The notes: generated by a model not told the origin, from the sequence alone. A DNA stretch of 61,387 bases, filler included, from Sluysia triapertura (GCA_046118255.1; 4 parts of 4 records of this genome joined end to end with filler, not necessarily neighbours in it); one strand, 5' to 3'. Positions 3,684-60,406 are shown, counted from the whole stretch's first letter. Numbers and translations: made by a program.

Positions 3684-4330
3684 TGTAGTGGACAATCTTT
3701 ATAATTGTTAAAATTTTAAAAGAAAAAATTAATTAAACCCCCAACACTTCGATATTCTCACACTTACCTCCAAGACACTTACAAAACCGTTCATTTGCCT
3801 AAACTAAGCCATATTCACAATCTCATAATATACAAACCATAGTACATCTAATACCATCAACTTACACCAACAAACCTATCGAAAACACGTAACTCGACAT
3901 CCATAACAACCAATTAATATCCAAATTTGAAATTATTTACTTTACATATTCGAATTAATTTCAACACCTTAAAGTCAACATTTGTCATTGCATGGTCACT
4001 AACAACACAACATAATACCTTTCAAAAACAACAAACAAATCACATAAAACATTACACAATATTTCAAATGTACCAAGAGTTGTATTGTAGCTTACCTTTT
4101 CACATTTACCAAATTACACTCTTCTCAATAGGTCTTTTATTCACGATCTTCCAATGTTTAAATATACTCTTAATCAGAAACATAAGTCAATACCTAAAAG
4201 TTCATTCCAGTGTTCCGCATTTAACTGCATTGCATAAGAAATACGTTAATCACACATATAAATTCATTCAAACTAATCTGTACTCAAAGATTATTAGTTT
4301 CAAAATATATTTAGAAGTCTCATAAGAGTT
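3684..4330 (+). mobile_element. CA-rich LTR-like element starting TGTAGTGG
   Basis: TGT start, strong C/A strand skew, and similarity of the first ~200 nt to the reverse complement of 31491-31884. Right boundary approximate. Confidence 0.5.
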
Positions 4331-4489
4331 AGAAAGATCGTGTATAAGCAAAAGATAAGAAATTTATGCATATTTTAAATTATTTTGAAATAAAATAACA
4401 TTAATAATAATATTAATATTATTTATTAATGTTACAAAATTTTATAACTTAATTTAATTTATCAAAACTAGTACCTACCATCATTACAA

Positions 4490-5930
4490 TAAATACATTT
4501 GTGTCAATATTGATGATGGCTATTCACTCAGCATGGCTGCACAGTCAAATCACTTATTAAATTTTTACAATCATATTACTGGCATCCAACTAAAAAAATT
4601 CATTAATCTGCAGATAAACAATTCTGGTTGGATGACAAATATAAATTATTATTGTCTCTCGCTGTTATTCCTATAGCAATAGTTGGTAAAATTTCAAATG
4701 ATACATGAACATATAGTTTGTAATATGAAATTAAACTGTATACGAGAAAGAATTGTTAATGCAGACTTTCACAAGCAAATCGAATGCGAAAACTCGTTTC
4801 AGTTAATTTTGAATACCACTCAATATCCCTGTTTTGGTAAAATTAAATACAATTTATTTTCAAGTATTACTAATAACAATTATAAAGCATTATTTTTAAT
4901 GCTCAATTATCAACAATGTCATAAAGTTTATAATTGTATTCTAATTTAATATCTAATTTTGGCGTTTATTCGTTTATGTATTCTAATAATGAATAAGCCG
5001 ATTCATTTGATAATTATGAGTCTATGTTGATGCTGTCTCCTATTTCTGATCTAGATGACTTAAAAAAATTAAAAATAAATTATAGTATAATTATTGATTG
5101 TAGAGTCCATTCACCAGTGATCCAAAATTTAGAATGTAACAATTTTATAAACACAATAGAACCTGTTTCTTTATGTAAATGTCCCGAGAAGTCTAGTTAC
5201 TGTAATCGATCTAGTATTACGAATTGGAAATCGTACCCATTGAGTTACATTAGCAAATTAATGTATTTTCTGACTGCAAAATTTAGTAAATGTATTTCAA
5301 TTAAAGATAATGAACAATTTCTTTCATTTGTTCAGTTAGTTTTACCACCATGTACTGATGTTTTCAAATCATCTTATAATCATGAAACGTCGTTTTCCAA
5401 CTAACTTAGTTCGTACAGAAATAGTTCAGACAACAAAGATTGCCAACCTATTTCAAAATGTTGATAATTGTTATATTTATGAACCTGCACGAATTTTTAA
5501 AATTGCACTGTTTTTATTATGTGCAACATCAGTAATTACGTATATTTTCCTTCTTCAAGAATGTAAGGAGTTATTCAAAAGTCTGTGGAATATGCAACAT
5601 ATAAAAAGACTTTCATCTGTATATTTAGTAATCAATCATCTTAAAATCTTCTTACAATTGGATCATCCGTATGCTCAGAATTATCTTAAAAAACCAACTG
5701 ATATCAAAAGAAAAAATAAAACTAATGCTAAAGTTATGTGATCACCTCTACAATCTCGAAAGTCATATGAAAATTATCTATCGGATAAACATAATGAATT
5801 CACTGGTCATAAACGAGAAATTAAAAACGTAAATTTTTGTCTTATTCAATTATTTTATAAATTAAATATTCATTTTTCTTCAGATGATCCTTTTGGAGTG
5901 CAGCGGATTGGGGTACATCAGGATACAGTA
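4490..5930 (+). pseudogene. Fragmented coding-like region (overlapping ORFs 5024-5404 and 5358-5741), unknown product
   Basis: Consecutive overlapping ORFs suggest a frameshifted gene. No family recognised. Confidence 0.3.
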
Positions 5931-6174
5931 TCAAATATAATAGTTTTTGTCTCTACGTTTAATAAAAGTTTCGAATATACTTATACGTTGTTTACTATTT
6001 TATATAATTTGTTTAAAGTTAAGTTATGTGACATTCCTAAATGTTTCACTTACAGTGAATGTAAACTCGAAATTTAAATAGATTCAAAATTGTGTGTTTG
6101 AAGAGTTAAAATTAAAATTTATAATATATGCTAGAGTTTTTCTTATCCTAGTCTTACGAATAAGAGTAAATGGA

Positions 6175-6450
6175 TGTGAGTTCACCAACGAACTAGTTAG
6201 GGCTAGCCGCTGAATTTTTTGAGATTTAGAAAAACTTAATATTTATGGAGGTTATTTTATTTCAACTAAAAAGAGACTTAAATAGATGATGGATATTTTA
6301 ATATGGTTCTTTAAAGTTAACCAAAAAATTTAGTAAATATTTTAATTGGTTCTTATAAATGAACCACAAATTTAAAAATAAGGATTTTGGTTGAACCTTA
6401 ATTTTAATTGTTAATAAAATTTAATTAGGTTCTAAAATGAACTTTTGTGA
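6175..6450. repeat. Dispersed repeat, copy 1 (GTGAGTTCACCAACG... with internal GGTTC-N7/8-GAACC palindromes)
   Basis: Aligns by eye with 22179-22440. Confidence 0.75.
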
Positions 6451-8366
6451 ATTATCAATAACAATAAATAATAATTAAATAAAATAAATAAAATTAAATT
6501 TTAGGTATGCCATTTATGAATTATAAAAAAACTAGTCATGCATTTTTATGATTTAATTATTTTTCTTCAACTAGCAATTCGAAAATTTGGATCAGACAGT
6601 ATACGTTAAGAGATCAACTCAGTTAATTAGTCTTAATAATAAACATAATATAATAAAATAACAATAACATTGAATTTAACGAAATAGAGTTAACATATTT
6701 ATTATAATTATTAAATCCATAAAGGTAAATTCAAACTATTCAGAATTTAATAGTCGAATCTAAAGCAGTATTTTCAAATAGACGATAGCTAATTATACAA
6801 AAAAATAATTGTGGTGTCTCAACCACGCCTGTAGTGAATTCCAAATCAACTCATGACAATCACAAAAACCCTACACAACACGACACATCTTACATAAACC
6901 GATTATTAAATAAAATACTCAGTAGATATAGAACATTTTATTTTATGCTATTTTATTGAAAATTCATGAAAATTATACATTTTTTATTAATTTTCAAATT
7001 AACACTAACGCAAGTGGCGCCAGCTTTTTAATGGCTTTTCTGACATATATTTCATATAATCTCTAAAATAAATTTGTCCACAAAATTGCGCTTACCGGTG
7101 GTTAAAGGTTTAAAAATAAATGACGTATCTTAATTTTTATTAGTCTATTGTAGATTCAGAAGGGTTTAATATCTATTATTGTCGAAAGACTAAAGTAACG
7201 TGAATGAAAATTTTTTTTCCAAATGGTTATTACTTTATAATGCCCAATCAAATTTTAAATGAGATAAATGAACTTAAGTGAAATCAAATCTGTTTGTATT
7301 TTATAATAATAACTATGTAAAAATCCAAGGTCAATCACGTGTGATCGTGTTTTCGTATACCTTTTAGACGGTCTAAGCACTTTATGGTTTATTGTCTACT
7401 TCAAGAATTATTCACAAGAAAAACACAATACATATTAATTAATACTTTTTAACACAACTTTATATAGATGATTACCACAATTAATAATAATAAAATCAAG
7501 AAAATCTAGAGAAACAAGAAGCTCGTAATATCCTCACGATTGATGGAATTAAAGATTTATTTATTTTAATTATTATTCGTATTAGTATTACAAGAGATTT
7601 TGTTATATAGGGGAAAATAAGTAACGAAATGATGTTACCTGTATTTTATAATTCATTTTCTAAGACTATAAACATCCTTATAAACTTTAAACTTACTGAT
7701 TTTGTTGGCTTTTCAATTTGATCCAAGATGGCATCGATATGATGAATATAAATATCTTTTCCTCACTAATTTTTGTAATTACAATTTAAAGTAAAATTTC
7801 TAATTCTGTTTTTCTTGTCGAAGGTAATCAGTATTTATAATGATTTTCAAATAATAAAATTTCCTTATTTTTTTTTGGGGGGAGATTTTCTCACCTACAA
7901 TAACAATAATAATAATAATAATAATAAAATTTAAATTTTATATGTATTATTTACTTATAAATCTAAGTAATAAATTATTTTTTAAAGTAATATGAAAATT
8001 ATCATTGTTATTACAACTAATTTAATAAACTGTTTGTGATAACCTAACATTTATATAAAATATAAAAATTTTGTTCTATCAAATTAAATAAAAATAAAAA
8101 AATAATTCCTTACAATAGGCATTTCTTTCAATAATCATATGTCCAAATTATTAGCTACATTATTGCTACATTTATTTGTGATGAAATCGTTTTGGGTTTT
8201 TTGACCTTCAGTGTAATATACATTACCGAATTTTAGTACTTGTCATAATGTACCTCTATTTTTAAACGTCTTGTGAGTATTGTTTGTCTTAATCTTCTAC
8301 TAATTTAGTAAAATTACAATGTAATATAAAAGTTTTCGAATAATTTTCTCATGTTTTCTACTTTAG

Positions 8367-59248: not shown

Positions 59249-59259
59249 CGATAAAATAG

Positions 59260-59613
59260 ATAAAGAACAATATGTATGACATTGAACTGCTTCGATGCTG
59301 CTTTCGTTGTTACTGTAGAGAAGTTAGCATGTGCATTAGATGTTGTTTTAGTTGAATATTTAATTGTTAGTGTACCGGTACTTGTAGAACTTGTCGTTGT
59401 AGCAACAGTTGTCAAAACAGAAGTTTCAGTTCGTATTGGTTTTGACATTCGAAAATCTTGAATCGATTCAATATATTGGTTCAATGTATTACTTATATTA
59501 GAAGATAGTTTTGACAATAAATTTGGATTTATACTACCTGCTTTATTTTCTATTATAACGCTACAATTGCAAATTAAAGCCGCATTTAAATTTCCGTTTT
59601 TAAATAATTCCAT
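59260..59613 (-). other. Thr/Ser-rich mucin-like coding fragment
   Basis: ORF 59167-59613 contains TTVATTTSSTSTGTLT; its 3' end overlaps the Ly6 fragment out of frame. Confidence 0.4.
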
Positions 59614-59694
59614 TCATTGGTCCACATTTCTTAAGTTTCCATTATGACTTATTTTTAATTTTTATATAGCACTGATATACACAGGATGAACTGT

Positions 59695-60039
59695 CTATTC
59701 AACTTTGGAAGTATGCAATCGTTGGTGGGGTGGTAGTTTAAGAAAGAATGGATGATTGAGAGCAGGTGTGAGTGAAATACGATCACTTGGTTCATCTTCT
59801 AGCATTTTGGTGATTAGATCAAACATTTCTATGGTTTCTTGGTTTTCATCTGTACAGTATCGCAATAACGGCCTGCAATTATCTCTGATATATCGTCCTT
59901 GAGAACAATAAGCGTCCCAAAGTAGTTTGCCGTGAGAAAAATAATTCGTTTTAGATTTTCGTGCTATGCGATATGGAAAATGCACCAATATACGTTCCAT
60001 CATCGCTAGGTGTTCTTTGTTGTCATGTGTTTGAAATGC
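59695..60039 (-). pseudogene. LAMMER (CLK/Doa) kinase C-terminal fragment
   Basis: [18 protein letters not shown]...[26 protein letters not shown]>V change in LAMMERILG. No AG acceptor upstream; abuts low-complexity and LTR-like DNA. Confidence 0.85.
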
Positions 60040-60044
60040 ATTAA

Positions 60045-60406
60045 AAATAATAATAATAATAAAAAATAAAAAAAATATAATAATAATAATAGTAATAGCA
60101 GTAATAATAATAGAAGTAATAATAAAAAAGAAGAGGGTGTGAAAATTAACACAATGTTGATGTAGTTGAGTGAGGCGATATCAGCGGTTTAAAAGTAGTG
60201 TTATATGATAAATTATCGTAGTCTGAATATATTATATTATATTTAAGGTGAGGTATATTAATGTACTATGTTTAAAGTATGTAATAGGTTTAAAGTATGT
60301 TATATTTTAGGTGTTGTCATATGTGAAAGATGTAGCAAAGCTGTACTGTGTATGGAATATTTGTGGTTGAGTTTGTTAAGGGTTCGTGAATAAGTTGAAC
60401 ACTACA
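60045..60406 (-). mobile_element. CA-rich TGTAGTG LTR-like element
   Basis: Minus strand starts TGTAGTGTTCAAC, is CA-skewed, and ends in an ATT/ACT low-complexity tract next to the kinase fragment. Confidence 0.5.

Follow-up and report, generated by a model that had tools for sequence, protein, structure and literature searches.

Gypsy-type LTRs of Sluysia triapertura with spliced, sense host mRNA inside, probably gained by read-through, splicing and strand transfer

Introduction

The window analysed here is a stretch of 61,387 nt from Sluysia triapertura (GCA_046118255.1) made of four separate contigs. Its CA-rich TGT starts are the 5' ends of Gypsy-type LTRs, typically of about 2.4 kb and with a fixed 3' end, and pieces of host genes lie inside several of these LTRs. 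The interpretation favoured here, which we hold to be quite probable, is that these LTRs contain spliced sense host mRNA that was gained by read-through, splicing and strand transfer.

Identity of the CA-rich starts

The initial annotation had listed seven CA-rich starts with a TGTAG motif, upstream of gene fragments and co-oriented with them. All seven were recovered with the same coordinates and strands; most carry the motif, whereas two read TGTGG or TGTAT. When a C-over-G skew filter (skew of at least 17) was applied to the TGTRGKG sites of the window, 7 of 24 passed, compared with a background of 3.6% (p=1.7e-5). These comprise six of the seven listed starts and an additional one at 31884(-), the start at 29156 failing the filter. 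The starts had been treated as one element type but are not one sequence family. The starts at 36987, 43262 and 45110 can be aligned together, along with 16723(-), a copy previously missed, while those at 3684, 29156, 36883 and 60406 are separate subfamilies. Genome-wide, 3,684 exact heads were counted for three subfamilies. LTR lengths range from 0.75 to 3.6 kb, and most copies, which number in the thousands, are solo LTRs. The CA-rich stretch would correspond to U3 and likely has a promoter role.

The LTR anatomy consists of a polypurine tract (PPT), a TG start, a fixed end, a tRNA-Leu primer site, and pol and gag upstream. PPT-TGT junctions were found at 69 sites with heads of the A, B and E types, 36883 among them, versus none in the control. 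This count comes from a wide pattern; an apparent scarcity of PPT relative to the primer-binding site (PBS) was dismissed since it came from a narrow pattern giving 4 matches. With 69 junctions, direct insertion of LTR-only strong-stop DNA need not be invoked, although it may occur. Exact junctions between an LTR end and a PBS number 33 (control 0) and designate tRNA-Leu(CAA) as primer, many of them being primer copies followed by unique DNA and not by a common internal region. Gypsy pol lies directly upstream in 14 of the 20 PPT-junction contigs fetched, and in L207 and L319; RVT_1, RNase H, rve and H2C2 domains were matched, and L319 shows the order RT-RNase H-integrase. The top integrase matches that have long frames, on 9 of the 20 contigs fetched for them, were set aside, being vertebrate-retrovirus-like and sharing nothing with the LTRs. 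The gag ORF matches DUF7041 below the cut-off (E 3.5e-5), a CX2HX9CX3C gag motif is present in an ORF of L295, and gag is linked to the pol contigs L437, L439 and L443. Among the contigs read, which are short, none spans a complete element with both of its LTRs.

Both LTR ends are fixed across copies and the cargo between them varies. The pol-adjacent LTR of L319, only 752 bp long, consists of head, one donor and tail; a 32-nt match in it, considered as a CAPN7 remnant, proved to be LTR leader. Exact 5-bp TSDs flank 4 of 23 units (shuffle mean 0.31). The other 19 have no exact TSD, and most of these differ completely, more than decay explains. What the initial annotation had named as counter-evidence, copies with their own TSDs as independent solo LTRs, is half borne out, in an unforeseen way: most copies are indeed solo and four have a TSD, but the TSD encloses the cargo. 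No TSD surrounds single heads, which discards them as short solo LTRs, and no convergent head pair that could form a TIR element occurs within one contig.

LTRs and cargo of the window

The family C LTR (3684..6059, +) lacks about 175 nt of its tail because another repeat truncates it at 6060. Its body is common to 19 other copies; other copies of the family end in CCAAA, and in 6 of 15 a partial tRNA-Leu primer site comes next. The LTR contains decayed ORF pieces (4458-5930, +). The ORFs at 4490-5930, initially paired with this start, are accordingly internal to an LTR, and Pfam gives no match for them. The newly recognized A-type LTR (13736..16723, -; about 2,990 bp) has a head that aligns to 43262 and a tail that matches PBS-adjacent tails. 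It has no TSD and includes a biotin-ligase fragment in sense (14028-14663, PF03099).

The family D head (28819..29156, -), for which the TGTAGTG start alone suggests an LTR, is followed by a multi-copy mosaic body extending to about 26700 (-). The acidic ORF paired with this start (28255-28491) belongs to the mosaic behind the head; the 3' end of the unit was sought and not found. A family F head (31491..31884, -), also missed initially, runs off the contig end and has copies in L269, L425 and L432.

The family B LTR (34439..36883, -; 2,445 bp, TGT...ATA) is a 3' LTR whose ends are both fixed across copies. Directly before it lie a polypurine tract and spacer (36884..36894, -), identical to the tract preceding LTRs behind Gypsy pol, and then about 90 nt more, to 36986 (-), of the internal region of the B element. 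Pfam identified a PFDN4 fragment (36024-36275, -) and a RAB29-like fragment (35520-36055, -) inside the LTR, so that the proposed pairing of 36883(-) with PFDN4/RAB29 is real, both pieces being cargo. About 40 of the 40 places scored contain the RAB piece.

A 3'-truncated family A head (36987..37490, +), with no tail on its contig, is inserted in this internal remnant. Its pairing with EMC8 (37876..38592, +) is a coincidence, as EMC8 is a resident single-copy host gene containing introns. Its one full copy has an open frame and two GT-AG introns, one of 34 nt (38077-38110) and one of 32 nt (38188-38219), the start exon not being fixed; a homologue search gave no matches. EMC8 lies outside any element and is neither a fragment nor cargo.

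The family A LTR at 43262..45109 (+) is cut about 85 nt short of its end by a second family A head (45110..45257, +), which is nested in its tail and runs off the contig end. It shows a TATA-like motif, with a presumed TATA role, and a leader (43620..43702, +) ending at the fixed nucleotide 43702. Next comes spliced cargo from four parent exons (43703..44423, +), which begins at the first base of one of them. An intact splice donor lies in the tail (44887..44905, +; intron side from 44899), where it follows a copy of the leader end. The cargo, which has no Pfam match and no relevant PDB match, is presumably CAPN7-like, a name taken from the initial annotation. CAPN7-like parent exons with AG/GT borders occur on C218962 and C197330.

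The family E LTR (57838..60406, -; 2,569 bp, TGT...TCA) carries a CLK-like kinase piece (59651..60036, -; Pkinase E=0.0013) made of three parent exons found on three contigs and part of the 3' UTR. The adjoining second spliced piece (59338..59650, -) derives from a gene on C21370, of which it has four exons; where the two are joined, a parent GT is on the left and a parent acceptor on the right. An RNase H1 N-terminal-domain fragment in sense (57804..58190, -; PF01693) lies in the 3' part of E LTRs, which is conserved, and is common to part of the E copies. A search with a kinase cargo gave six matches at 27-31% identity, four of them named from schistosomes, a weak taxonomic indication. The CAPN7 and CLK pairs are thus borne out as cargo inside LTRs. 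More generally, the initial description of elements upstream of gene fragments was right on co-orientation but not on adjacency, because the LTRs enclose the fragments. The CA-rich element can be called the 5' end of a capturing vehicle, as had been proposed, in the sense that it is the LTR 5' end and that the fragments travel within the LTR.

Cargo is spliced and in sense orientation

Nine exact intron losses were identified in five genes (CLK 2, C21370 gene 3, CAPN7 2, helicase 1, mGluR 1). One CAPN7 junction also shows a 24-nt deletion, and L478 retains an intron-like stretch ahead of the same cargo. Downstream of A heads, ORFs of at least 50 aa are distributed as 51 sense and 24 antisense (20 loci, 21.5 kb; L279, which lacks a tail match, left out), against 116 and 113 in the upstream control flanks (73.5 kb). 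Host pieces identified by Pfam outside the window are 11 in sense and 1 in antisense (12 pieces; p=0.006), the sole exception being TBP in L165. The Pfam scan, with low-complexity ORFs removed beforehand, covered the longest 140 of 156 cargo ORFs and the longest 140 of 229 upstream-control ORFs; the latter gave one sense and one antisense host match, and viral/TE matches at three loci, in antisense. Both data sets support the co-orientation of elements and gene fragments. The other explanation initially offered, insertion with orientation bias, finds no support in the 116/113 distribution upstream or in the recurrence of an identical head-cargo-tail unit at unrelated sites. Pol-adjacent LTRs also hold sense cargo, for example a SKI domain in L424 and a CCCH finger in L427 and L439. 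Full-length units were located via cargo or tails and are therefore not a sample of the loaded fraction.

Joins between leader and cargo

In family A, cargo begins at the first base of a host exon in all three testable parents: in mGluR, CAPN7 and kinesin (two paralogues), leader and cargo meet at the parent acceptor. One more join has its acceptor in a non-parent copy. The leader end is fixed: among 405 first-look candidates, matches stop at the base corresponding to 43702, and 53 exact leader ends lead into 16 different continuations (counted by eye). Furthermore, 28 of 37 distinct A tails have an intact splice donor, placed after a repeat of the leader's last 12 bases. These exon-exact joins likely reflect large-scale, splicing-driven exon copying and shuffling.

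The head/cargo joins of B and E are ragged, and a T-rich hot spot coincides with the RAB piece. The E/CLK join sits 7 nt inside the upstream exon and E tails have no conserved donor. Splicing is therefore not the sole route.

Two narrow patterns for an unspliced master, in which GT comes after the exact 43262-type leader, gave no match; young copies, however, collapse at the ends of contigs. One sequencing run of contigs, probably the source sample, showed no donor-bearing leader continuation. No sense LTR was seen upstream of three parent exons within the 2.8-4.3 kb that separate them from the contig end.

Proposed mechanism and alternatives

In the favoured scenario, an element sitting in sense in a host intron would be transcribed past its 3' LTR into the host gene. 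Splicing from the LTR donor to host exons would then give one RNA with PBS, PPT, U3, leader and host exons. Minus-strand strong-stop DNA (U5 and the donor part of R, with U3/R/U5 borders as presumed here) would transfer early, inside the host sequence, yielding a U3-leader-cargo-donor-U5 product. Having become part of the LTR, the cargo would be copied at every round and would survive LTR-LTR recombination. Later rounds could stack genes through renewed use of the LTR donor, through cryptic donors within earlier cargo, or simply by template switching.

The chimeric RNA could also have arisen in other ways. Solo LTRs in introns, thousands of which are available, might give leader-exon chimeric mRNAs by cis-splicing, mammalian LTR donors being known to supply 5' exons (PMC5538554); co-packaging and two template switches would bring these into the LTR. 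This two-RNA route predicts identical exon-exact joins and a duplicated donor. We consider it rather unlikely, as it requires one additional switch and as a solo LTR whose donor is unspliced should then have stayed upstream of the parent exon, whereas none was seen within reach in the three parents. That lack of an LTR upstream of the parents, in the reach examined, would suit trans-splicing of the LTR leader to host pre-mRNAs, with recapture of the products into the LTR by reverse transcription. Spliced-leader trans-splicing occurs in flatworms, a group to which the host may belong if the weak kinase-cargo matches are a guide. A single fixed leader end joined to 16 different sequences and the use of internal exons agree with such a spliced-leader-like process. 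However, the donor is located in an ordinary LTR tail, and a transient, since-lost insertion in the parent intron accounts for the empty introns; this explanation is regarded as quite unlikely. We give slightly more credit, while still judging it unlikely, to a putative selfish spliced leader that would be trans-spliced to pre-mRNAs of unlinked host genes, at their internal exons, with the products then reverse-transcribed back into the LTR. If true, a retrotransposon would sample the host transcriptome without inserting in those genes.

Microhomology-driven template switching alone, of the kind in Tan et al. 2016, onto co-packaged mRNA and with switches happening to fall in the LTR, would yield sense cargo and multi-gene chimeras, and the ragged B and E joins with the hot spot at the RAB piece speak for it. 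It probably accounts for part of the B/E cargo and for 3' joins. As a general explanation it is very improbable, and as the sole route in family A it is already contradicted: three of three testable joins fall on the first base of the exon, no shared bases being needed, and with exons of about 100-300 nt simple arithmetic gives about one chance in a million. Lastly, the units might be ends of DNA transposons (Ginger, Helitron, Pack-type), or else independent solo LTRs of short length, that insert beside genomic gene fragments or carry them. TGT...ACA-like ends and an A at target position -2 (37 of 57) fit either kind of integrase, and most units lack a TSD. This possibility is scarcely credible given the PPT, PBS and pol links, the lost introns, the TSDs enclosing cargo and the unbiased upstream flanks. 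Inverted ends reach only 3-8 nt, with no long terminal inverted repeats and no hairpin-CTRR/TIR-type ends. Mis-assembly of the junctions is also unlikely with 69 and 33 diverged sites.

Significance

Host cargo inside the LTR, splice-joined in family A, sets these elements apart from the LTR-mediated retroposition described in animals. As cargo within the LTR survives the LTR-LTR recombination that deletes the internal region, one event can be multiplied and fixed at many sites, as illustrated by one RAB piece at about 40 places. Taking 3,684 exact heads in three subfamilies at about 2.4 kb per LTR, promoter-led exon mosaics may make up several megabases of the genome. The base-exact joins constitute a fossil record of exon shuffling by a probable splice-plus-strand-transfer route. 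LTR finders fail on such units, which also swell gene annotation; exceptionally long LTRs in other genomes would mark places to look for more of them.

Comparison with known systems

Swain and Coffin in 1992 reportedly described how transcripts running past the 3' LTR bring sense host sequence into the packaged RNA. In classical retroviral read-through transduction, the gene ends up in the internal region, whereas here the LTR is lengthened via putative splicing from an LTR donor. In the literature searched, largely open-access main texts, no report of host exons carried within LTRs was found.

Mammalian MaLR/ERVL solo LTRs have a splice donor near their 3' end and can join host exons, but the accessible text of PMC5538554 has them rewiring genes in place, without describing recapture and amplification of the exons. 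Gene-capturing TRIMs and maize Bs1 (PMC4717578, accessible part), like the present elements, capture exons only. In these elements, and in Burro and Ogre (PMC6431247, accessible part), cargo is in the internal region or polyprotein instead of the LTR. Burro and Ogre, which are giant LTR elements, show that multi-kilobase LTRs exist; in that same text, Ogre's long LTRs are not ascribed to host exons.

Compared by features and not by a tree, the elements resemble the CsRn1 clade of Ty3/Gypsy (PwRn1, AgCR), as far as the accessible text of PMC2582038 describes it, in the TGT...ATA and TGT...AAA end variants, the CX2HX9CX3C gag motif, the RT-RH-IN order and the PPT before the 3' LTR. They differ in primer (tRNA-Trp in the clade, tRNA-Leu(CAA) here), in TSD (4 bp, versus 5 bp in all four TSDs here) and in LTR length (146-381 bp versus 0.75-3.6 kb).

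The retrocopies of Tan et al. 2016 (PMC5131818, main text) share with the present ones the LTR machinery, partial spliced mRNAs, multi-gene chimeras, repeated copying and intron loss against the parent (here nine exact losses in five genes). Those retrocopies replace internal ORF sequence between two LTRs, and neither "solo" nor "within the LTR" occurs in that main text; here, cargo lies within one LTR, bounded by its TG start and its PBS-adjacent end, and persists in solo LTRs. Moreover, their joins are microsimilarity switches, whereas the 5' joins of family A are splice junctions at acceptors.

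Heads and units

The seven CA-rich TGT starts that the initial annotation described as lying upstream of, and co-oriented with, gene fragments are all present at the coordinates and strands claimed. A C-over-G skew of at least 17 is seen at 7 of the 24 TGTRGKG sites of the window (background 3.6%). Sequence alignment divides these starts ("heads") into several subfamilies, A (36987, 43262, 45110, plus 16723), B (36883), C (3684), D (29156), E (60406) and F (31884), the heads at 16723 and 31884 having been overlooked initially. Genome-wide, searches with 17-20-nt sequences gave 3,095 (A), 451 (E) and 138 (B) exact heads and none for the controls. 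The 5' end of the head is sharp to the base with unrelated flanks between copies, and A occupies position -2 before it in 37 of 57 copies. A short head-like fragment at 6810-6915 (+) has two TGT starts 20 nt apart; double starts of a similar kind are seen at loci L153, L165, L269 and L273 outside the window. Two heads have upstream of them fragments that match a Monjiviricetes-type fusion glycoprotein family (L010:1177-1365 and L012:3-876).

Genome searches with fragments as query revealed that head, cargo (an intron-free host gene piece) and a second fixed end travel as one unit. From head to fixed end, the family B unit covers 36883-34439 and the family E unit 60406-57838. The family A unit (43262 to about 45109) is cut by a nested copy and the family C unit (3684-6059) by another repeat, while an A-type unit at 16723-13736 had been overlooked. 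This latter sits between BAH-domain exons (8367-13309, +) and a proteasome ATPase OB-domain piece (17040-17620, -). The repeat interrupting the family C LTR (6060-6557) has a counterpart at 22115-22538; the two are 64% alike and include a short hairpin. A search for the 3' end of family D found none, and ORFs of the family C and D units gave no Pfam matches. The 22 units read at both ends, which are not a random sample since they were located via cargo or tails, measure 752-3,593 bp (median about 2,400). L382 contains a unit some 45 bp long, whose start and end are both of E type, with a primer copy behind it. An exact 5-bp TSD encloses the whole unit in 4 of 23 cases (shuffle mean 0.31) and is absent in 19, 16 of which match at two positions or fewer. 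Candidate explanations for this shortage are recombination between neighbouring LTRs, or faulty ends such as the many that run into a primer copy.

The units are LTRs

It is close to certain that these units are LTRs with internal cargo. Thirty-three ends of A or E type run into a tRNA-Leu primer site, and such a site is also found after B and C ends. A polypurine tract precedes 69 starts, including the B copy of the window (control 0), about 4 of these junctions having other spacers and being possibly due to chance. Related Gypsy pol lies directly upstream in 14 of the 20 tract-bearing contigs fetched; in three of the other six, the upstream sequence is at most 1.1 kb. For example, L319 carries RT, RNase H and integrase together with the tract and an A LTR of 752 bp. 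In L295, the primer site is followed by a gag-like frame (CX2HX9CX3C motif, DUF7041 match below cut-off); matching frames precede pol in two contigs, L439 and L443, and an integrase remnant in a third, L437. Only 7 of the 3,095 exact A heads have the exact tract, so solo LTRs or collapsed copies make up the majority; on no contig examined do two LTRs flank gag-pol.

Behind many LTR ends lies a primer copy, of 18-49 nt or more. Twenty-two of the 24 long tRNA-Leu matches (L372-L393, L246, L248) begin at a copied CCA end, in most cases immediately behind an LTR end, and in most of the long matches unique DNA comes next. Twelve stop after 47-49 nt, where the 3' exon of the tRNA gene has its border. 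Two others (L380, L387) extend through the tRNA intron, so that the primer is likely an unspliced CCA-tailed pre-tRNA. In L374, an LTR end, a primer copy and an LTR start are joined in head-to-tail order, as they would be in a circle junction; L237 has a primer copy that runs into the LTR end in inverted copy. The window also holds, at 23796-24495 (-), decayed pieces of what we take from their motifs to be Gypsy protease and RT.

Cargo and genome setting

In the LTR copies, parent exons with AG/GT borders abut, their introns being lost: two such junctions in CLK, three in a gene whose parent is on contig C21370, two in CAPN7 (plus one with a 24-nt deletion) and one each in a helicase and mGluR. 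Cargo and parent share 81-96% identity. Strand-blind Pfam scans outside the window found 11 sense host pieces (DOCK, SLC6, family-3 GPCR twice, TPR, FAM184, RING, PDCD10, SIKE, two kinases) versus one antisense (TBP; p=0.006), and one of each in the upstream-flank control (140 of 229 ORFs scanned). Further matches in LTRs anchored by the tract (SKI, three CCCH fingers, one weak exportin repeat) are all sense. The association of elements with gene fragments is real, and more specific than first described: retrotransposon LTRs carry spliced host exons inside them, not beside them. Among the pairs initially described, EMC8 is the exception, this gene being a single full copy with introns in place and an open frame.

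The CCCH fingers (L427, L435, L439) are Unkempt-like, two of the three lying behind pol. At L101:4658-5320, an open FAM184-like cargo of 221 codons runs in frame into a RAB piece, a ready-made fusion frame. A RING ORF and an unknown ORF recur paired at 32279-34273 (-) and at L317:6001-7552, where the pair continues into sequence resembling an A-family tail.

The window consists of four contigs of an animal assembly (619 Mb, 25% GC, fragmented), with host introns both tiny (32-34 nt) and multi-kilobase. As a weak taxonomic check, a kinase cargo had six hits at 27-31% identity, of which four are named from schistosomes. Long-frame gag-pol(-env) contigs (L304, L306-L311, L320, L196) resemble vertebrate endogenous retroviruses, presumably of fish type, and are likely DNA of a host animal within the assembly.

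Joins and proposed capture mechanism

The head of the 43262 subfamily has one fixed last nucleotide, 43702, and 53 exact ends of its leader (the stretch preceding cargo) meet 16 different continuations, counted by eye. The first cargo base is the first base past the parent acceptor for CAPN7, kinesin (two paralogous parents) and mGluR; for a fourth cargo, a copy other than the parent has an acceptor. The contig with the helicase parent stops short of the join. Between CLK and the second gene of the E unit, a parent GT lies on the left and a parent acceptor on the right. Of 37 distinct A tails, 28 contain an intact donor, located some 230-290 nt from the end of the LTR; the 12 bases preceding it, TCATATAATAGT, also form the end of the leader. 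In L319, the short LTR contains this TCATATAATAGT-donor site once. A donor-like site occurs at a similar distance in 21 of 24 B tails; none is found in E tails.

The simplest reading of these sequences, which we consider fairly probable, is that an element inserted in sense in a host intron would be transcribed through its 3' LTR, whose donor would be spliced onto the next host exons. Minus-strand strong-stop DNA bearing U5 and the donor would then land early, within host sequence, giving the order U3-leader-cargo-donor-U5. Such a pathway would account for why the cargo is in sense, lacks introns and is joined exactly at its 5' side, why the leader end is repeated, and why the cargo lies within the LTR. 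Narrow search patterns found no unspliced master with the exact 43262 leader, and no sense LTR lies within 2.8-4.3 kb upstream of three parent exons. Loss of a harmful insertion would explain this latter point, as would trans-splicing. Furthermore, B and E heads join their cargo raggedly: at the RAB piece, at least 10 different cargos converge on a T-rich hot spot. Plain template switching thus probably contributes to capture.

Comparison with known systems

In LTR-mediated retroposition as already known in animals, cargo replaces internal ORFs through switches at microsimilarities (PMC5131818), whereas here it lies inside the LTR. In TRIMs and Bs1, the exons carried are internal to the element (PMC4717578), mammalian ERVL LTRs serve in situ as sources of 5' exons (PMC5538554), and a review of giant elements puts capture sites downstream of pol or between LTRs (PMC6431247); further background is found in PMC12471100 and PMC3601003. 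The gag motif and ATA/AAA end variants are shared with CsRn1-clade elements, which however use a tRNA-Trp primer and have 4-bp TSDs (PMC2582038), versus tRNA-Leu and 5-bp TSDs here; the present elements thus work like relatives of CsRn1 and are not counted as members. The mainly open-access literature searched yielded no description of host exons inside LTRs.
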